7,979 nt of DNA, taken from a virus (Duplodnaviria; Heunggongvirae; Uroviricota; Caudoviricetes). The DNA lies in IMG/VR virus record IMGVR_UViG_2740892230_000037; one strand, 5' to 3'. Both the position numbers and the translations under genes were made by a program. Below the pieces are notes generated by a model that did no database searches, was not told the origin of the DNA, and saw only the letters and a list, made by a program, of their open reading frames with translations. Below, piece after piece: positions 1 to 7,979 of this stretch. Within the stretch, counting starts at the first letter, position 1; each line of letters begins with the position of its first letter.

Positions 1-1020
1 CTACTTGCTAACCACGAGCGGCAAATCCAGTGTTGGTGTGATTTTTGTTTTACGATCGTAAATCAACACCTGATTTTCTGTTTTATGCCCGCTGAAAATT
101 TGTTTGTCGCGACTGCTGCCTTCGTAATCTGAGATCCCCTTGGCTTTTATGTCGTGAAAATTGCACCCGAACGGAACGCCAACTTTTTGCTCGGCTGCGC
201 GTTTAGCCTGATTCCACCAGTTATTCAGCGTTTTAGCTATGACTTTCCCGCCTTTGGTTGTATTGATCACATATTCGCATGTACAGGAAGATACATTTCG
301 GGCTAACTGGATCGCTGTACGTAATCGCGGTGACCATTCCTTGATTTGTTTGGTGCCGGTTTTGTTTTGCTCAATGTAGATCCCTTTATCCATAATATCC
401 TGCCATTTCAACTCAAGCACATCACCGAGTCTTGCCGCACAGAGATAGGAAATCTCCATTGCAATGCGTAACTGTGGAATTGCTTCCGCATATATCGCCG
501 CATACTGTTCATCGGTGATGTAAACAGTGCGGGCTTTAAGAGAGAATTTTCTGACTCCTTTGCATGGGTTATTCTTCACATACCCACGCTCATATCCCCA
601 CCCGTATACTCGACTCAGGCTTGCCAGTTCATGATTTGCCTGGGTCTTGCTCTCAAGCCCTCGTTTATCCATGAAAATTCTTACCTGCTCAGTTTTGACA
701 TTATCAGCAAGCACTTTTCCGAATACCATCAGCAACGCCTTCTGATGTTGTCGATAATCTTTTTGGGTTCGGGGGGCCAGTTCTGTAAATGCAGGGGAGT
801 CCATAAACATGTGCCATAATTTAGCTACGGTCATTATGTTGTGGAGTTTTGCTTTTTCCAGTTCATAATTTTGCCAGACTTTAGCTACGCTGGTTTTCCG
901 CACTCTTCCTAGCCCTATACTTCTTGTACTTCCTTCGGGTTTCCACACGTAACTGTAACCATTCGATCTAACCCGCGGTGGCAGTACATTATCTTTTTTA
1001 TTTTTTCTTGGTCTTCCCAT
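1..1020 (-). CDS. int: Tyrosine site-specific integrase, lambda Int family (complete, 339 aa)
   Basis: Uninterrupted minus-strand ORF with ATG at 1018-1020 and TAG at 1-3. Basic N-terminal segment (MGRPRKNKKDNVLPPRVRSNGYSY) and C-terminal FHDIKAKG...SGHKTENQVLIYDRK tail follow the layout of lambda Int, including a Tyr in the expected catalytic position. Its start is overlapped by the upstream small ORF, as in lambda xis-int. Confidence 0.92.
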   Translation of the reverse strand: MGRPRKNKKDNVLPPRVRSNGYSYVWKPEGSTRSIGLGRVRKTSVAKVWQNYELEKAKLHNIMTVAKLWHMFMDSPAFTELAPRTQKDYRQHQKALLMVFGKVLADNVKTEQVRIFMDKRGLESKTQANHELASLSRVYGWGYERGYVKNNPCKGVRKFSLKARTVYITDEQYAAIYAEAIPQLRIAMEISYLCAARLGDVLELKWQDIMDKGIYIEQNKTGTKQIKEWSPRLRTAIQLARNVSSCTCEYVINTTKGGKVIAKTLNNWWNQAKRAAEQKVGVPFGCNFHDIKAKGISDYEGSSRDKQIFSGHKTENQVLIYDRKTKITPTLDLPLVVSK

Positions 1021-1330
1021 TGTTCAGCGCCTCAAAATCGGGTTCAGCAGAAACCAGTTCAGATGTTTTTGGCATCGTTGTCAGACCGTGTGGAATATCC
1101 CTGCGGAGAACTATGGGTTCGTTTTTAGGGCCGATTACAAATGGGATGCCGTGCAGTCTTAACTNNNNNNNNNNTCCGTGTGGAATATCCCTGCGTAGAA
1201 CTATTGGTTCGTTTTTAGGACCGATTACAAATGGGATGCCGTGCAGTCTTAACTGGTGTTGCTGTTTTGTGTATCGCTCGTATTTCGTGATCTCTTTAAT
1301 CTCTGCTGGAGATAGAGTTAATTCGTACAT
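998..1330 (-). CDS. xis: Excisionase-like small protein; the true product is probably about 80 aa because the ORF crosses gap 1165-1174 and contains a duplicated block
   Basis: ATG at 1328-1330 (MYELTLSPAEIK...) and a lysine-rich C-terminus (NNGKTKKK) that overlaps the int start by 23 nt. Position, size and overlap match lambda-type xis. The 26-aa block LRLHGIPFVIGPKNEPIVLRRDIPHG is encoded twice, on either side of the N run. Confidence 0.55.
   Translation of the reverse strand: MYELTLSPAEIKEITKYERYTKQQHQLRLHGIPFVIGPKNEPIVLRRDIPHGXXXXLRLHGIPFVIGPKNEPIVLRRDIPHGLTTMPKTSELVSAEPDFEALNNGKTKKK
1081..1258. repeat. Two copies of an 84-bp xis segment separated by N10 (1165-1174)
   Basis: 1081-1164 and 1175-1258 align base for base with 3 substitutions, all synonymous in the minus-strand xis frame (ctc/cta, ccc/cca, ggc/ggt). 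Confidence 0.9.
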
Positions 1331-1397
1331 GTGGTCACGTGCCTTTACAGCATGACCGCCGCCACTATAGCTGGTGGGCGGCGATATGGGTTGAACA

Positions 1398-1570
1398 TTA
1401 AAAATCAGCCTGACTCGGGATCAGTTTTTGCCAGATAGCTGAAACGTATTTTGCCTGATAACGGGCGTCATCAAGTGCATTATGGCGCTCACCTTCGAAT
1501 GGGATAGCAGTTCTGGCATCGAAGTCTATGGCTTTCCCCAGCTCAACGATTGTGCGTACATCGCGATCGT
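1398..1570 (-). CDS. DEDDh 3'-5' exonuclease, C-terminal fragment with stop (allele 1)
   Basis: Minus-frame translation DRDVRTIVELGKAIDFDARTAIPFEGERHNALDDARYQAKYVSAIWQKLIPSQADF ending at the stop at 1398-1400. Contains the Exo III motif H-x-A-x-x-D-A (HNALDDA). Truncated upstream by gap 1571-1580. Confidence 0.7.
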
Positions 1571-1580
1571 NNNNNNNNNN

Positions 1581-1843
1581 GCAGTTTTTGCCAGATGGCT
1601 GAAACGTATTTCGCCTGGTAACGTGCATCGTTCAGAGCGTTATGGCGTTCACCTTCGAATGGAATAGTCGTTCTTGCGTCGAAATCCATCACCAGTCCCA
1701 GAGCAACCATCGTTCTTACATCGCGATCATTGGTGTAACGCCACGGGCAGGGGATCCCCTGCCGTTCATATGAACGGCGTAAAATCACGTTGTCGAAAGT
1801 TGCACCGTCACCCCAGACCTGAACAAAAAATTCACCGGAGTTT
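1581..1843 (-). CDS. DEDDh 3'-5' exonuclease, internal to C-terminal fragment (allele 2)
   Basis: In-frame translation NSGEFFVQVWGDGATFDNVILRRSYERQGIPCPWRYTNDRDVRTMVALGLVMDFDARTTIPFEGERHNALNDARYQAKYVSAIWQKL. Carries an Exo II-like FD motif (GATFDNVIL) and Exo III (HNALNDA). Bounded by N runs on both sides. Confidence 0.7.
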
Positions 1844-1853
1844 NNNNNNNNNN

Positions 1854-2192
1854 CTGCGCTTCACGTGATTGCTTCAGCCACCATTTAATGACGTCACGAT
1901 CAATGACTCCGCCAGCAGTATCCAGATCGATGGTCTTGCTAAATTCTGGTCCCATATCTCCGGTTTGCGGATCGAAAAATATTGCGCCTATTGAGATAAT
2001 CGGGGCATCGGGATTTTTTCCCATGGTTTCAAGGTCGATCATCAGATGAATCCCCGCTCTGCTGGTGGATGTGAGCTTATGATGACCATTCACCTTAATT
2101 AAGGGATCTGTCGCCTCGCCAGTTTTATTATCGCTGGCGTGATGCTGATTGCCGCCAGGGTTCTCCTTGTGTGGATGTTCAGCGCCTTCCAT
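1854..2192 (-). CDS. DEDDh 3'-5' exonuclease, N-terminal fragment with His-rich leader (allele A)
   Basis: ATG at 2190-2192; [21 protein letters not shown]...NGHHKLTSTSRAGIHLMIDLETMGKNPDAPIISIGAIFFDPQTGDMGPEFSKTIDLDTAGGVIDRDVIKWWLKQSREAQ. Exo I motif D-x-E (MIDLETMG). Truncated downstream by gap 1844-1853. Confidence 0.7.
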
Positions 2193-2203
2193 TNNNNNNN
2201 NNN

Positions 2204-2527
2204 TTGCGCTTCGCGTGATTGCTTAAGCCACCATTTAATGGTGTCCCGATCAATGACTCCGCCAGCAGTTTCCAGATCGATAGTCTTACTAAATTCCGGT
2301 CCCATATCTCCGGTTTGCGGATCGAAAAATATTGCGCCTATTGAGATAATCGGGGCATCGGGATTTTTTCCCATGGTTTCAAGGTCGATCATCAGATGAA
2401 TCCCCGCTCTGCTGGTGGATGTGAGATTATGATGACCGTTCGCCTTAATTAAGGGATCTGACGCCTCGCCAGTTTCACTATCGCTGGCATGATGCTGATT
2501 GCCGCCAGTGTTCTCCTTGTGCTGATG
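2204..2527 (-). CDS. DEDDh exonuclease N-terminal fragment (allele B, about 95 percent nucleotide identity to 1854-2192)
   Basis: Same frame and motifs (…[99 protein letters not shown]). Bounded by N runs. Confidence 0.65.
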
Positions 2528-2537
2528 NNNNNNNNNN

Positions 2538-2732
2538 GATCGGGGCATCAGGATTTTTTCCCATGGTTTCAAGGTCGATCATTAGATGGTTACACGTCCT
2601 GCTGGTGGATGTGATTTCTTGATGACCGTTCACCTTAATTGAGTGATCTGCCGTCTCGCCAGTTTCATTATCGCTATCGTGATGCTGATTGCCGCCAGTG
2701 TTCTCCTTGTGTGGATGTTCAGCGCCTTCCAT
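2538..2732 (-). CDS. DEDDh exonuclease N-terminal fragment (allele C)
   Basis: ATG at 2730-2732; [65 protein letters not shown]. The 33 nt preceding gap 2734-2743 are identical to the 33 nt preceding gap 2194-2203. Confidence 0.6.
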
Positions 2733-2744
2733 TNNNNNNNNNNC

Positions 2745-2885
2745 ACACGTCCTGCTGGTGGATGTGATAACGTGATGACCGTTCACCGTAATTAAGGGAT
2801 CTGCCGTCTCGCCAGTTTCACTATCGCTGGCGTGATCCTGAGCGCTACCAGCATTCTCCTTGTGTGGATGTTCAGCGCCTTCCAT
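2745..2885 (-). CDS. DEDDh exonuclease N-terminal leader fragment (allele D)
   Basis: ATG at 2883-2885; [47 protein letters not shown]. It is in the same frame as, and 57 nt downstream of, the amber stop of the zinc-ribbon ORF at 2940-2942. Confidence 0.6.
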
Positions 2886-2939
2886 TTCCTTCGGATCATC
2901 TTCCTGAACTTCAACCTGATACTCTTCATCGAATGTTTC

Positions 2940-3085
2940 CTAGTATGTTGCGTCGCCCATCACCGCGCCACAATCAGGGCAGTTGCCGCCGCCGGTCTGA
3001 CCGCAGGCGGTGCAGACTTTTTCCACTTCCTGTTGCGCCACTGGTTCAGGCTGTTTCGTTTCTGGCTCGTTTTGTAACGCATTTG
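2940..3085 (-). CDS. C-terminal end of zinc-ribbon protein (Q/E/P linker plus CxxC-x9-CxxC), ending in TAG
   Basis: In-frame translation ...[47 protein letters not shown] then the TAG stop at 2940-2942. 5' side truncated by gap 3086-3095. Confidence 0.65.
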
Positions 3086-3095
3086 NNNNNNNNNN

Positions 3096-3284
3096 CCATC
3101 GAATATTTCCTGGTATGTTGCGTCACCCATCACCGCACCACAATCAGGGCAGTTGCCGCCACCGCTCTGACCGCAGGCGGTGCAGATCTTTTCCGGTTCC
3201 TGTTGCACTACTGGTTCAGGTTGTTTCGTTTCTGGCTCGTTTTGTTGCGTATTTGGGCTGTTTTGTTCCGCTTTCTGGTCGTTC
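3096..3284 (-). CDS. Zinc-ribbon module, allele with CAG (Gln) in place of the amber stop, reading through toward the exonuclease leader
   Basis: [63 protein letters not shown], with no stop before gap 3086-3095. The CAG codon at 3110-3112 aligns to the TAG at 2940-2942. Confidence 0.6.
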
Positions 3285-3294
3285 NNNNNNNNNN

Positions 3295-3450
3295 AGTTCC
3301 GTTCCGATTCATGCTGGTTCTGGTTTACAGAATCGCGGGTCTGGATCCCCTTAACCCATTTCGGATCATTCGGGTCGCTAATCCCTGCAACAAATTCTCC
3401 GCGAGAGGCAGCAAGCAACTTATCGGCGTCAGGCTGGCTGATATTGGCTG
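3295..3450 (-). CDS. Shared module fragment ([51 protein letters not shown])
   Basis: In-frame minus-strand translation. The same module, with substitutions, sits at the C-terminal end of the 4609-6133 ORF and in 3461-3712. Confidence 0.6.
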
Positions 3451-3460
3451 NNNNNNNNNN

Positions 3461-4405
3461 TCAACAAATTCACCACGTGATACTGCAAGCAGTTCATCGG
3501 CGTCAGGCTGGCTGATATTGGCTGCCTGCATAATTTTCTTTACTTCGTCAGCGGTAACTTTTACCGGTTCTGGTTGTTCAGAATTTTGTGCGGTATTTGC
3601 ATTTTGCGGTAAGCCTGTGTATGTGCCATTTTTTCGGGCAAAATATTCTTCTTTTGTGATTTCAGTAGCCCCGGCAGCCAGCGCCTTATCCAGACCAGAA
3701 AGTTTGTTTGCGNNNNNNNNNNACGTGCGAAGTATTCCTCTTTTGTGATTTCCGTAGCTCCCAGGGCCAGTGCTTTTTCCAGACCAGAAAATTTGTTTGC
3801 GCGACCGTATTTTTCGCCATCCTTGTCGGTGAAGAGGAAGTAGAACGGCCCCTCACGCTCTACAGATGGTTCGACTTCCACTTTGCATTCGGTTTTTTCG
3901 TTGTCCGGAATTGCCGTTTCCACTGCATCAGTTTCTGGTACTGNNNNNNNNNNAGCTTCCGGCGCGGTTTCATTTTTTGGGATATCAGATACCTCAGTTT
4001 CCACTGCATCAGTTTGTGTTTCTGATGACTGGAGAACATCAACAGTGCCCAGGTCTGTTTCTTCATTCTCAAACACGCCCTTTGTCGTCAGGTATTCGCA
4101 GATATATTTGTTCAGTGCTACGGGATCTTTGTGAATGTNNNNNNNNNNTGACGGGAGAGTACCAGCTGTGCCCTGATTTGTTCCTTCGTCATCTTCAAAC
4201 ACGCCCTTGGTAGTCAGGTATTCAGTGATGTATTTGTTCAGTGCTACGGGATCTTTGTGAATGTCGATCGGACGCTCACGGACAAGGCCAAAAATAGTCT
4301 GACGGTCGTAGCGAACGGCATCGGGTTGTTTGCGCATTGATGCGGAAATGCGCTTCCAGTCTTCGCGATCTTTGTCGATAACTTCATTTTTTGCCCAGCG
4401 ATGGA
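3461..4405 (-). CDS. Four gap-separated fragments (3461-3712, 3723-3943, 3954-4138, 4149-4405) of one or more paralogues with a different N-terminal domain joined to the same shared module
   Basis: Translations: (4149-4405) ...HRWAKNEVIDKDREDWKRISASMRKQPDAVRYDRQTIFGLVRERPIDIHKDPVALNKYITEYLTTKGVFEDDEG...; (3954-4138) IHKDPVALNKYICEYLTTKGVFENEETDLG...; (3723-3943) ...VEREGPFYFLFTDKDGEKYGRANKFSGLEKALALGATEITKEEYFAR; (3461-3712) [83 protein letters not shown]. Adjacent fragments overlap as divergent alleles. Confidence 0.55.
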
Positions 4406-4415
4406 NNNNNNNNNN

Positions 4416-4598
4416 CTTTTTCCGGTTCCTGTTGCGCTACTGGCTCAGGTTGTTTCGTTTCTGGCTCGTTTTGTAACGCATTTGGGCTGTTTTGTTCCGC
4501 TTTCTGGCTGTTTTGTTCCGCTTTCTGGCCGTTCTGTTCCGTTTCTTGCTGGTTCTGATTCACTGAATCGCGGGTTTCAATCCCCTTCACCCATTTCG
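4416..4598 (-). CDS. Linker fragment of the shared module, containing a 21-bp tandem repeat
   Basis: [60 protein letters not shown], bounded by gaps on both sides. Confidence 0.55.
4464..4548. repeat. 21-bp tandem repeat (unit gctgttttgttccgctttctg, 2 perfect plus 2 degenerate copies) encoding QKAEQNS heptads
   Basis: Perfect units at 4486-4506 and 4507-4527, degenerate units on either side. Further copies of the unit lie at 3256-3276 and near 3061-3085, next to gaps. Confidence 0.85.
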
Positions 4599-4608
4599 NN
4601 NNNNNNNN

Positions 4609-6133
4609 CGTTCCGTTCCGATTCATGCTGGTTCTGGTTCACAGAATCGCGAGTCTGGATCCCCTTGACCCATTTCGGATCATTAGGGTCGCTAATCCCC
4701 TCAACAAATTCACCACGCGATACAGCAAGTAACTTATCGGCGTCAGGCTGGCTGATATTGGCTGCCTGCATAATTTTGTTTACTTCGTCAGCGGTGACTT
4801 TTACTTGGTTAGCGGAACTCACTTGCGACTGAGCATCCAGCGACTGCGCGTTCTGGCCATGTTCAGTTGTATCCGGTTCCATTGTTTCAGTTGTTGCCTG
4901 TTCACCTGCCATTGCGTCAGATGGTTGTGGTTTTTCTTCTTCTGTTTCACGCTCAGTAACCACCTCGCGGTTAATTTCTTCCAGGATATCTTTTTCCGGC
5001 GTATGCCGGGCAGCTGTGAGAGTTTCCTTGCTGGGGTTCTCGTGATCAGTTTCCGTCAAATAGGCGTTGATATACCCCTGAAGGCGTCCCGGGTAGTGAT
5101 AAAATTCAGGGTGTGCGCTTCGGATAAGTGCAAAAATAGCGGCGCGGGAATAGTCCAGAATACCCGGGGTTGCACGAAGTGCTGCGGACCATTCTTTGAA
5201 CGGACTTTCTTTGTTCAGGACTACTTCTTTTGCGCGACGATAAACGCTGCCCGGAATTTCATAAATATTAAAATCCATCGGAAGTGTGGCTGCTGCAATC
5301 TCCACATCCAGTGTGTCGAGGGTGTGTACTAAATTCGGATTGCGATCGGTTTTGTTCCCACCGCCAGCATTAGCACCGGAAGCCGTGCGGGTGATGCGTG
5401 AAACACGATTTCCTTTCATCCACTCTTTTGTCAGCAGACCCCGATCAGTGTAGTCAGTGTCCAGGTATGCTTCGAAAAAAGCAGTTATTAGTCCCAGGTC
5501 TGAATTACCAGGATTAGGGAAAACTTTGTCAGTGTCACGAACCAGTTTGTGGAGGTCGCGAATCTCCAGCGAGTCGAGCAGACTGGTTTTATGCGAAATA
5601 GCCAGGGCAGTAACAGCCGGTAGTTCTTCAGCCCGTGCAATGTGTAATGCCTGGAGTTCGTCGCGTGAAACGTGCGTTACTGATTTTTCGCTGCCGTGTT
5701 GAGCAAGCCAACGAATGGGCAGTTCCTGACCGGAGACAGGCAGAAGCATGCTCTCCTCAATCTCAGTCATGTCTTCGCCGTTGATGTTGGTATTGTCAGT
5801 GCTGGCTGGTTTGTCCTGAACAGAGGGGGAAGGGCCGATAAATGTCATTGTGATGCCATCTTTCCCGCCTTTTTCATAGCGGTTGCAGAATTCAGTATCA
5901 AACACGCCTTCTGGCGGAAGGTCGTCAACAACGGGCAAATTGACGCGGACGGGTTTTTTAAAGTCGTCTTCATCATAATCGTTGTCATCCATTGCGGTAA
6001 TGCAGCGGGAGATTGCAACAGATAATTTTTTTGCTGTAGTCCAGTAAAAACCACCTTTAATTCCTAGGCGTTTTCTTACTTTGTCATTTTTTGCTTCGCA
6101 ATATAGTGCAAATTCTTCTTTATCAGTGCTCAT
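4609..6133 (-). CDS. Large early-left protein, N-terminal 508 aa (5' complete, 3' cut by gap 4599-4608); tentatively RecE-N-terminal-like, possibly an intact counterpart of Qin-prophage ydfE
   Basis: ATG at 6131-6133 with a GAGG about 10 nt upstream; long protein-like ORF with an acidic TE-rich region. It ends in ...[56 protein letters not shown], the module that elsewhere continues into linker and zinc ribbon. The resemblance of its central region to the RecE N-terminal half is from memory only. Confidence 0.8.
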
Positions 6134-6226
6134 TATTGGTAAACCTCATCACAGATTTAAGGGTGAACAAATCTCTGCCATTGCTGACATATAAGAATGA
6201 AACTGGATATTTATTACGGTGCTGTT

Positions 6227-6418
6227 TTAAAATCCTGCCGGGATTTCGTTATTATCCTGGTGAATAACTTTATCGACCGGGTAACAGTTACCGGGAATTT
6301 TCTGTTCGGTTGCTGCAGTCACACACTCCTGCATTGTCCTGTGAACACTGACTGCAATATCAACTGGCTCTCCGGAAACAAGAAAAACTGTCAGAACAAG
6401 TGCAAATGCTGTATTCAT
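6227..6418 (-). CDS. ydfD: YdfD-like small lysis protein with a hydrophobic N-terminus (63 aa)
   Basis: ATG at 6416-6418 overlaps the dicB stop as ATGA; MNTAFALVLTVFLVSGEPVDIAVSVHRTMQECVTAATEQKIPGNCYPVDKVIHQDNNEIPAGF. It sits immediately downstream of dicB, as in the Qin prophage of E. coli K-12. Confidence 0.7.
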   Translation of the reverse strand: MNTAFALVLTVFLVSGEPVDIAVSVHRTMQECVTAATEQKIPGNCYPVDKVIHQDNNEIPAGF

Positions 6419-6569
6419 TGCCAGCATCCTTTTTGTATCGGACGTAAACGGGCCAGCATTGAAAGAATGCATATTTTATTTAATAGCTCCCGTTCGTGTT
6501 TTCTCTTGTTAATGGCATCTTCAGTAAATACAGGGTTACTGATAGTGACACCAATTTCAAAACAACCTT
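6415..6569 (-). CDS. dicB: dicB allele 1, C-terminal fragment (5' cut by gap 6570-6579)
   Basis: ...GCFEIGVTISNPVFTEDAINKRKHERELLNKICILSMLARLRPIQKGCWQ with stop at 6415-6417. About 90 percent nucleotide identity to 6606-6760. Confidence 0.7.
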
Positions 6570-6605
6570 NNNNNNNNNNCGTCAGAATAAGTGCAAATAC
6601 TGGAT

Positions 6606-6794
6606 TCATTGTGCACATCCTTTTGGCATCAGACGTAAACGGGCCAGCATTGAAACAATGCATACTTTATTTAATAACTCCCGTTCGTGTTTTCTTTTGT
6701 TAATGGCATCTTCAGTAAATACAGGATTACTGATAGTGACACCAATTTCAAAACAACCTTCAGACGTATTAACGTTTGGTAATAACGTTTCCAT
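6606..6794 (-). CDS. dicB: DicB cell-division inhibitor (complete, 62 aa)
   Basis: ATG at 6792-6794 with GAGGA 7 nt upstream; METLLPNVNTSEGCFEIGVTISNPVFTEDAINKRKHERELLNKVCIVSMLARLRLMPKGCAQ. The stop overlaps the ATG of a second ydfD allele (6580-6609, cut by the gap). DicF lies 180 nt upstream on the same strand. Confidence 0.8.
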   Translation of the reverse strand: METLLPNVNTSEGCFEIGVTISNPVFTEDAINKRKHERELLNKVCIVSMLARLRLMPKGCAQ

Positions 6795-6969: not shown

Positions 6970-7012
6970 AAAAAGGGCGGCAGAGCAGTCACGGAGTAAA
7001 ACTGATACCGCC
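6970..7012 (-). terminator. Intrinsic terminator forming the DicF 3' end
   Basis: GC-rich stem (GGCGGUA...UGCCGCC) followed by five U on the minus-strand transcript (A run at plus 6970-6974). Confidence 0.65.
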
Positions 7013-7027
7013 AAACGTCACCAGAAA
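6975..7027 (-). ncRNA. dicF: DicF small RNA (ftsZ-targeting sRNA of the dicB operon)
   Basis: Reverse complement of 6975-7027 reads TTTCTGGTGACGTTTGGCGGTATCAGTTTTACTCCGTGACTGCTCTGCCGCCC followed by TTTTT, which matches the 53-nt DicF sequence as I recall it, and it lies directly upstream of dicB. Confidence 0.8.
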
Positions 7028-7360: not shown

Positions 7361-7594
7361 ATGTTAAAATCAACTCTTATTGCTAAATGCCTTTATCAAA
7401 ATCGCATGGTAAGCAGCATTTCAATAGGCGAGTCTGCAGTTAAAAGTATTTTCGAAGAGTACTTTCCCGGGCATGATTTTAATAAATGGAATACCAAATT
7501 ACCGCCAGCAGTTTCAACGCGTATTCTGAAAGCAACCGAAAGAGCAAGTACAATTCGCGTTAACTATTTCATTAAAGATTTGTGGGATCTTTGA
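7361..7594 (+). CDS. Hypothetical 77-aa protein (AT-rich island, unknown family)
   Basis: ATG at 7361 preceded by AGGAGG at 7351-7356; protein-like composition (MLKSTLIAKCLYQNRMVSSISIGESAVKSIFEEYFPGHDFNKWNTKLPPAVSTRILKATERASTIRVNYFIKDLWDL). Base composition turns visibly AT-rich at about 7357. The 3' end overlaps the convergent 135-aa gene by 23 nt. Confidence 0.55.
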   Translation: MLKSTLIAKCLYQNRMVSSISIGESAVKSIFEEYFPGHDFNKWNTKLPPAVSTRILKATERASTIRVNYFIKDLWDL

Positions 7595-7979
7595 TATCCA
7601 CAGAGCCTAAAGTATGTGCATATGGATGTGCTATTATGCGCCCTCGCAGATTTGCATCATTTTCTAAATTCACTGAACGAAACAGGGCATCAACAAGGCT
7701 CTGTACAATGCAAAGGCAATCGAAGACTGTCGCCGTTTCTGTTTTGATTGATGAAAGAACATGGCCATTCACGCAAACAGAAATTACCCGTTTATTAACA
7801 TCGCTTTCCTGCTTTTGATTATCAGAACCATATAGCCCAGAAAAAGCATTGCGCACATTACGAACCATATTATCGATGGTTTCTTTTTCTGCGGTACTAA
7901 GGTCAAGAGTAGCCAGTTGTGAACGAACTATATTCGATGCCATTTCCTGTAATGGCGTTGGTAAATCTTTAAATTCCAT
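7572..7979 (-). CDS. Hypothetical 135-aa protein (AT-rich island, unknown family); start codon is the last three bases of the window
   Basis: ATG at 7977-7979, TAA at 7572-7574; balanced, soluble-looking composition (MEFKDLPTPLQEMASNIVRSQLATLDLSTAEKETIDNMVRNVRNAFSGLYGSDNQ...). The plus-strand ORF antisense to it (7582-7818) is R/S/C-rich and junk-like. Upstream signals are outside the window. Confidence 0.6.
   Translation of the reverse strand: MEFKDLPTPLQEMASNIVRSQLATLDLSTAEKETIDNMVRNVRNAFSGLYGSDNQKQESDVNKRVISVCVNGHVLSSIKTETATVFDCLCIVQSLVDALFRSVNLENDANLRGRIIAHPYAHTLGSVDIKDPTNL

Follow-up and report, generated by a model that had tools for sequence, protein, structure and literature searches.

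The window, by which we mean the entire 7,979-nt stretch of DNA that was analyzed, carries an integrase, a DUF4224 gene, an exonuclease with Exonuc_VIII and Rv2179c-like domains, DUF1482, DicB and DicF in a conserved order. It is interrupted by 15 runs of N, each exactly 10 nt long when counted over the whole window, which agree in number, length and position with those reported in the preliminary description of this sequence. The runs delimit 16 stretches, referred to below as segments S0-S15, across which the features are distributed as follows:

1..1020, minus strand: tyrosine integrase, a 339-aa ORF (Pfam PF00589); lies in S0 and is reliable
998..1330, minus strand: DUF4224 gene at the excisionase position; broken by the gap at 1165-1174 and a false 80-nt duplication
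1398..6133, minus strand: recE-like exonuclease, present as fragments of several alleles in series; one gene of about 2.45 kb in intact prophages
6227..6472, minus strand: DUF1482 (ydfD-like; PF07358, E = 7.8e-25); lies in S14
6606..6794, minus strand: dicB (PF05358, E = 3.7e-40); lies in S15
6975..7026, minus strand: DicF small RNA gene (Rfam RF00039, 76.7 bits versus a gathering score of 48)

For comparison, a reference set of 165 fetched loci (L001 and so forth) was used together with the places inspected in closed genomes. Many closed STEC/B1 genomes, that of O103:H2 12009 among them, match S0 (1-1164) at 100% identity, and the homologue of the DUF4224 gene in L001 (12998-13240) matches PF13986. 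Segments S1-S14 are all in-frame pieces of an exonuclease protein of 813-816 aa, the allele in S14 matching PF06630 in its N-terminal and PF16473 in its C-terminal part. The allele in S6 contains an amber stop. Intact loci have a single recE-like exonuclease gene of 2.44-2.49 kb, and every IMG/VR locus fetched, like the loci inspected in closed genomes, has only one such gene. The true content of the window is an ordinary int / DUF4224 / recE-like exonuclease / ydfD / dicB / dicF lambdoid prophage arm. The early-left arm of the Rac/Qin-type lambdoid prophages of E. coli has the same gene content and order in closed genomes; the biology is the same, and only the serial layout of alleles in the window is unusual.

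Of the 15 gaps, 12 have before the N run a diverged copy of the sequence that comes after it. The pattern is far beyond chance. The paralogous flanks noted in the preliminary description are present at these 12 gaps, but the identity range of 85-95% given for them is too narrow, the actual values being 65-96%. The three remaining gaps are unlike the others in that sequence is missing at 1844, the flanks are near-contiguous at 3285, and there is a backward jump at 4406. Arrays of 21-bp repeats occupy 3221-3283 and 4450-4551, and the placement of several gaps inside such an array was an overstatement: only the gap at 3285 adjoins one, with those at 3086, 4406 and 4599 lying 34-135 nt away. At 11 of the 15 junctions, the base that follows the gap differs from that of the paralogue. 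The individual gaps are:

Gap 1, 1165..1174: offset -80 nt; two arms of a simple bubble in series
Gap 2, 1571..1580: offset -150 nt; S1 tail (1421-1570) and S2 head are different alleles, 79% identical
Gap 3, 1844..1853: true hole, with 68 nt (2 x 34) missing
Gap 4, 2194..2203: offset -340 nt; S4 and S3 start at the same homologous base
Gap 5, 2528..2537: offset -180 nt; S4 tail versus S5 head 87%, first base mismatched
Gap 6, 2734..2743: offset -143 nt; S5 tail versus S6 head 88%
Gap 7, 3086..3095: offset -160 nt; S6 tail versus S7 head 89%
Gap 8, 3285..3294: offset about -5 nt, near-contiguous; at the end of the 21-bp repeat array 3221-3283
Gap 9, 3451..3460: offset -64 nt; S8 tail versus S9 head 84%
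Gap 10, 3713..3722: offset -79 nt; S9 tail versus S10 head 81%
Gap 11, 3944..3953: offset about -71 nt; weak homology, 65% ungapped and 89% over 28 nt
Gap 12, 4139..4148: offset about -116 nt; S11 tail versus S12 head 83% in a gapped alignment
Gap 13, 4406..4415: backward jump of about 0.86 kb, at which a second tiling path, S13-S15, begins
Gap 14, 4599..4608: offset -69 nt; S13 tail versus S14 head 86%
Gap 15, 6570..6579: offset -181 nt; simple bubble in series, with the ydfD/dicB junction falsely duplicated

The arms at gap 1 (1085-1164 and 1175-1254) are identical at 76 of 80 positions (95%) and both finish in one 34-mer, the variant being the first base after the gap, and those at gap 15 (6389-6569 and 6580-6760) are identical at 165 of 181 positions (91%), again with a variant first base and with the last 34 nt in common. 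Both gaps are bypassed in intact sequences: the gap-free L003 passes from S0 to S1:47 with a 34-nt overlap, and 45 reference loci pass with such an overlap from the end of S14 to S15:148. S8 likewise represents a complete bubble arm, the partner of which is S14:1-156, with a terminal 34-mer common to both. At gap 2, L003 goes directly from S1:246 to S2:1, and the tail of S1 matches L004, L002 and L060, not L003. The 68 nt missing at gap 3 correspond to L003 1594-1661, between S2 and S4; in the coordinates of L001, the last base of S2 is 13593, with S3/S4 beginning at 13662-13663. Over 323 nt, S3 has 94% identity to S4; their first bases differ (C versus T), and the terminal 34-mer of S3 is also that of S5. 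The identical stretch preceding the gaps at 2194 and 2734, earlier given as 33 nt, is 34 nt long, with a mismatch just upstream. Direct passage from S5:53 to S6:1 is seen in 18 reference loci. The final 34 nt of S6 are identical to S13:36-69, with 19 reference loci going on from S6 along S13. For gap 8, the end of S7 maps to L002 6005 and the start of S8 to about 6001; for gap 11, the end of S10 maps to L001 14689, with the alignable part of S11 (from S11:44) beginning at 14662. The last 34 nt of S11 recur as S12:83-116. At gap 13, S12 corresponds to L004 2847-3103 at 100% identity, and S13 lies upstream of it (about L004 2246-2428; L003 2132-2314 at 100%). The continuation of S12 is absent from the window; this absence and the backward jump count against the graph-based explanation given below.

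The recurrence of the length of 34 nt is also evident when all segments are compared with each other. There are 18 exact matches of at least 25 nt between segments, of which six are exactly 34 nt long, each reaching the last base of a segment, and only two are longer. Among comparable matches of intact paralogues 70% exceed 34 nt and 2% equal it, the window differing from them with P of about 1e-6 for the share above 34 nt and 3e-7 for the share of exactly 34 nt. Furthermore, the two kinds of segment end behave differently: within the window, a suffix of exactly 34 nt is common to another segment at 7 of 15 right ends, and the longest stretch so shared is at most 17 nt at all 15 left ends. When the 165 reference loci are considered, a variant base followed by 34 common nt is found at 14 of 15 right ends (background 7.6%, P about 3e-15), and 13 of 15 left ends fall on a branch or variant base (background 7.7%). 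The right end of S4 and the left ends of S10 and S11 have no match to this signature in the reference set, and the corresponding alleles may be missing from it. From the sequence alone, these features indicate that the segment boundaries are branch points of a de Bruijn graph with k = 35, the reason why the breakpoints recur and one that the preliminary description did not identify. The asymmetry of the ends, with a 34-nt overlap on the right and none on the left, points to the assembler's own scaffolder, with nodes concatenated internally.

The proposed segment-by-segment comparison with complete prophages placed different segments in different prophages at 99-100% identity. L003 matches S0, S2 and S13 at 100%, L060 matches S8 (100%), S1 (99.7%) and S5 (99.5%), L007/L009 match S7 (100%) and S9 (99.6%), L004 matches S12 (100%), and L002/L090 match S14 (99.7%), with a maximum of 4 of the 16 segments per intact locus at 99% identity or more. 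S14, S15, S3, S6, S10 and S11 have no 100% match among the loci fetched. A 71-mer of S13 matches three IMG/VR contigs, all of which are gap-free relatives. The path of L003 through the window runs along S0, S1:47-246, S2, the 68 nt absent from the window, S4:1-128, S5:1-53, S6:1-156 and S13, with an overlap of 34 nt on leaving right ends and 0 nt on entering left ends. Such matches of segments to different intact prophages, and the threading of the window by real, gap-free prophage contigs that switch between segments exactly at the branch points, bear out the earlier view that this is a short-read assembly involving several related lambdoid prophages, in which gene order and linkage between 1081 and 6760 are not established.

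Segments S3, S4, S5 and S6 represent the same homologous stretch, and therefore at least four copies are present. Among E. coli genomes, places matching the region number 2 per genome in the median and 9 at the maximum; copies within single isolates are 88-99% identical to one another, and direct examples of isolates having two diverged copies were encountered. A single closed genome with all the alleles was not found in a search that gave one place per record. The sum of the offsets yields 7829 - 2428 = 5401 nt, and the same region in the closed genome NZ_CP015229 measures 5,400 bp.

Given the above, the window is very probably a scaffold made by de Bruijn graph assembly (k = 35) of short reads, in which pieces of at least four diverged copies of a prophage arm were written in series. 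The source would be an E. coli genome (less likely a mixed sample) with at least four copies of a lambdoid prophage arm. Copies identical over at least 35 nt would have entered one common node of the graph, and differing copies would have formed a branch. With the tangle left unresolved, the scaffolder would have written the alternative branches one after the other, with no single path per prophage, and the estimated distances, being negative or tiny, would have led to the insertion of the minimum gap of 10 N every time. For a piece following a gap, the first k-1 = 34 bases would be omitted from the output, and it would start on the first base distinguishing it from its paralogue, and a piece preceding a gap would finish with the last distinguishing base and 34 common bases. 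The real locus would be about 5.4 kb in size, with the remaining alleles coming from other prophages elsewhere in the genome.

Velvet writes gaps estimated at less than 10 bp as 10 N, and its nodes store one base per k-mer. Both patterns are encountered in the window, where all gaps are of 10 N and the pieces after the gaps lack their first k-1 bases, and the right ends with 34 common bases are likewise as in Velvet-style scaffolding. A Velvet-like assembler is a candidate on account of the 10-N minimum gap and the absent k-1 prefix. A literature search did not recover a published statement of the 10-N rule, and other graph assemblers may behave like Velvet in this regard. Default bubble popping in Velvet might have merged the 80-nt bubble with its four mismatches; the settings or the program may differ.

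In the preliminary description the contigs were taken to have been ordered against a reference. Under this reading, an external tool would have arranged independent short-read contigs of several prophages along a reference genome, with 10 N as the linker. The starts of S0-S12 do rise almost monotonically on the O103 prophage, with overlapping extents, as sorting by position gives. However, stand-alone de Bruijn contigs carry the k-1 overlap at both ends, whereas here it is found at 7 of 15 right and 0 of 15 left ends, with the left ends starting exactly on a variant base. Moreover, S13 is about 0.86 kb out of order and S3 (start 13663) is placed before S4 (start 13662). This asymmetry and the non-monotonic position of S13 contradict the attribution and render such an origin improbable. 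Some sequences in the collection are N-masked, and the runs could in principle be masks that a curator or the database set on ten real bases, but the flanks would then be exactly 10 nt apart on a reference; the values observed range from -858 to -64, apart from one of about -5 and one of +68, with +10 at no gap, and masking was rejected as having a negligible probability.

The same artefact could also have acted on alleles from a mixed culture or strain mixture, as opposed to paralogous prophages of one genome. Sequence by itself cannot distinguish paralogues from co-sequenced strains, and every allele is a natural variant present in other isolates. Nevertheless, the common multi-copy carriage and the isolates with two diverged copies described above suffice for the data, and S0, the long S14 and S15 assemble cleanly, making a mixture quite improbable. 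Genuine chromosomal tandem partial duplications of the exonuclease region, separated by small sequencing gaps, would account for the order in which the window is printed, and this order is the sole observation in their favor. Against them, the block edges fall on k = 35 branch points, stretches identical over more than 34 nt hardly occur, in contrast to real paralogues, and pieces in series would break the single exonuclease ORF. Neither a tandem layout nor 10-N runs occur in the 165 fetched loci, all of which are one-copy; no tandem layout was found at the closed-genome places inspected, and the only such place covering at least 80% of the query is a normal 5.4-kb locus with 89% identity. Genuine duplication is thus extremely improbable, and was rejected because of the k-mer signature and because intact genomes lack it. 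A layout that is partly real, in which exonuclease fragments form a short but genuine tandem repeat in one prophage, e.g. a cassette-like array arising through recombination between co-resident prophages, with the assembler only breaking it at k-mer branch points, is highly improbable. A milder version is that at least four co-resident prophages of the strain have distinct recE-like alleles, one of them with the amber stop (S6).

On the whole, the observed feature is an assembly artefact and not biology: an ordinary region of about 5.4 kb appears as 8 kb of tandem copies. The apparent tandem duplications, which were doubted from the outset, do not exist in the real chromosome, as none of the intact loci compared has this layout and the window comes down to the canonical 5.4 kb once the overlaps are removed. 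Its value is only that of a data-quality flag. For 1081-6760, the gene calls, copy numbers, repeat arrays and seeming duplications are unfit for use, and the numerous truncated exonuclease ORFs of this part are artefacts.

A comparable situation is that of false segmental duplications due to mis-assembly (Kelley and Salzberg 2010, PMC2864568), described as "duplicated overlapping contigs" and "duplicated contained contigs", in which two diverged versions of a region form separate contigs that are both linked to one and the same neighborhood, become adjacent across a gap and give an illusory duplication. The overlapping type is represented in the window (e.g. gaps 1165 and 6570), and so is the contained type (S8, which falls inside the extent of S14; S3 versus S4). 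The published cases involve two versions, the haplotypes of diploid vertebrates, whereas the window involves at least four versions from paralogous prophages in a haploid bacterium, and is further distinguished by its short pieces (156-396 nt) and explicit k-mer signature. This k-1 signature, namely a spike of exact matches of one length at right ends along with a variant first base after gaps, provides a quick sequence-only test, with which further draft genomes might be screened for this artefact and the k of their assembly recovered.

The layout of the window is an artefact. The stretch contains exactly 15 runs of N, all of 10 nt and each where the preliminary description had located it, which divide it into 16 segments (S0 to S15). 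In closed E. coli genomes the order is integrase, DUF4224, a single exonuclease gene of ~2.45 kb, DUF1482 (ydfD) and dicB; in the window, S1 to S14 are all in-frame fragments of one and the same exonuclease gene. The features are as follows:

1-1020, minus strand: integrase (PF00589)
1398-6133, minus strand: fragments of a recE-like exonuclease (PF06630 N-terminal part and PF16473 C-terminal domain)
2161-2193 and 2701-2733: 33-mer at the ends of S3 and S5, also the contig end of L005
3221-3283: 21-bp array in S7, about 3 copies
4450-4551: 21-bp array in S13, about 4.9 copies
6227-6472, minus strand: DUF1482 (ydfD; PF07358)
6606-6794, minus strand: DicB (PF05358)
6975-7026, minus strand: full-length DicF small RNA gene (Rfam RF00039, 76.7 bits)
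7361-7594, plus strand: ORF of 77 aa, no Pfam match
7572-7979, minus strand: ORF of 135 aa reaching the window edge, no Pfam match

The DicF gene lies upstream of dicB on the minus strand, as is usual in Qin-type prophage arms. S0 is 100% identical to prophages of many closed O103, O26 and other B1-type genomes, and S15 past ~7360 aligns poorly with the fetched references.

The exonuclease gene is modular (window 1398-6133, minus strand; L001:13308-15758 and L002:5084-7525 in two intact reference prophage loci). Its N-terminal half occurs in two types, the L001 type and the Exonuc_VIII type present in S14, which are little alike (~41% amino-acid identity where alignable) and are followed by the same linker and C-terminal domain. 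The shared linker combines 7-aa QKAEQNS-like repeats, coded by the 21-bp array, with a CxxC...CxxC motif, and the C-terminal domain common to both types is an Rv2179c-like 3'-5' exonuclease. Among the references, too, the array varies in copy number, and such variation in linker length probably makes the assembly tangle worse.

At 12 gaps a segment ends in a diverged version (65-96% identity) of the start of the segment that follows, and at gap 2194 (gaps are named by their start coordinates) the entire preceding segment recurs in diverged form as the following one. Two gaps, 1165 and 6570, are simple bubbles, with paired arms of equal length (80 nt and 181 nt, respectively) written in succession. 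The flanks of gap 3285 are almost contiguous, the sequence jumps back by ~0.86 kb at gap 4406, and gap 1844 (1844-1853) conceals 68 nt of absent sequence (2 x 34; positions 1594-1661 of L003, a gap-free IMG/VR contig), probably a short shared repeat node skipped by the scaffolder. S13-S15 come after S12, the continuation of which (~1.2 kb, from the N-terminal half of the L001/L004 type) is absent from the window. The two unrelated N-terminal allele classes may behave as a single large bubble. The identity preceding gaps 2194 and 2734, earlier put at 33 nt, actually extends over 34 nt, and of the several gaps that had been placed inside the 21-bp array, what stands is that only one of the two arrays adjoins a gap.

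The lengths of shared sequence point to a specific origin of these breakpoints. Among the 18 exact matches of >=25 nt between segments, 6 (33%) are exactly 34 nt long, all running up to the last base of a segment, and only 2 (11%) are longer; the corresponding figures for 686 such matches among 11 intact copies of the same region are 14 (2%) and 481 (70%). Under the intact-copy rates, so many matches of exactly 34 nt would have a probability of ~1e-6, and so few longer ones a probability of 3e-7. An exactly 34-nt suffix is held in common with another segment by 7/15 right ends, no left end has more than 17 nt in common with another segment, and the first base after the gap mismatches the paralogue at 11/15 junctions. 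In the comparison with the 165 fetched reference loci, 14/15 right ends are matched by some allele over their final 34 nt but not at the base just before (7.6% at internal positions; P ~3e-15), and 13/15 left ends lie directly after a 34-mer continued by another base in some allele (background 7.7%). The ends of S9 and S13, which have only 10 nt in common with any window segment, also display the 34-nt signature against the references. These tests indicate that pieces end with the last distinguishing base plus k-1 shared bases and start at the first distinguishing base, the k-1 prefix of each piece not being printed. Judged from sequence comparison, the breakpoints are branch points of a de Bruijn graph with k = 35. 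An independent draft contig, L005 (IMGVR_UViG_2579778812_000004), stops at its position 6341, exactly on the 33-mer that ends S3 and S5, so other assemblies also break at that branch point.

Real prophages thread through the segments of the window. L003, which matches S0, S2 and S13 at 100%, can be followed by exact 35-mers from S0 through positions 47-246 of S1, S2, the 68 nt absent from the window, positions 1-128 of S4, 1-53 of S5 and 1-156 of S6 to S13, bypassing the segment tails that stand between those pieces in the window. In a tally over 85 reference loci, right-end exits overlap their continuation by 34 nt (S0 to S1:47, S6 to S13:36, S8 to S14:123 and S14 to S15:148), or by 33 nt for S3/S5 to S6:111, where S6 has an adjacent variant; left-end entries abut internal positions of other segments with zero overlap (S0:1084 to S1, S1:246 to S2, S5:53 to S6, S8:92 to S9 and S14:1780 to S15).

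Other segments are matched by different intact loci: S8 (100%), S1 (99.7%) and S5 (99.5%) in L060; S7 (100%) and S9 (99.6%) in L007/L009; S7 (100%) and S4 (99.4%) in L013; S12 (100%) in L004; S14 (99.7%) in L002/L090; and S3 (99.4%) in L121/L109. No single fetched locus matches more than four segments at >=99%. One homologous stretch is represented in each of S3, S4, S5 and S6, which means that there are at least four copies. Multi-copy carriage is normal, with a median of 2 and a maximum of 9 matching places per genome, and copies within single isolates are 88-99% identical, a range overlapping the divergence across the gaps of the window. A strain mixture, an unlikely alternative on sequence evidence, is not needed as the source of the alleles.

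Taken together, the comparisons show, as read from sequence, that the pieces are nodes or paths of a graph with k = 35 to which several alleles contributed, written serially. They would have been joined by the assembler's own scaffolder, which would have put in its minimum gap of 10 N because it estimated the distances as negative or tiny. Gaps of constant size (10 N) and the absence of the k-1 prefix would fit Velvet output; a literature search on this attribution gave no support for or against it. The preliminary description, while right to warn of uncertain linkage and false duplications, had the contigs ordered against a reference. Such ordering agrees with start coordinates that mostly rise, but it is at odds with the different behavior of left and right ends and with the out-of-order S13, which favor scaffolding within a k = 35 graph. 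Two further explanations, a real tandem duplication and masking as the origin of the Ns, were rejected. False duplications in which two versions of a region are placed side by side across a gap have been described (Kelley and Salzberg, PMC2864568); the present case belongs to the same general class, although the versions here are paralogous prophages rather than haplotypes.

The per-gap offsets (distances between gap flanks on homologous sequence, negative for overlap) total -2428 nt, reducing the 7829 non-N bases to ~5401 nt, and the whole query spans 5,400 bp in the closed genome NZ_CP015229. Neither a 10-N run nor a tandem layout is seen in any of the fetched loci (0/165). Redundancy accounts for the extra length of the window. 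The k-1 signature of the segment ends could be used as a sequence-only screen for artefacts of this kind. At a finer scale, S6 carries an in-frame TAG at 2941-2943 (minus-strand reading) in place of the CAG (Gln) of other alleles; on the plus strand, position 2942 is A in S6 and G in S7, L004 and L005. The TAG is either a genuine nonsense allele in one of the prophage copies or an erroneous base.
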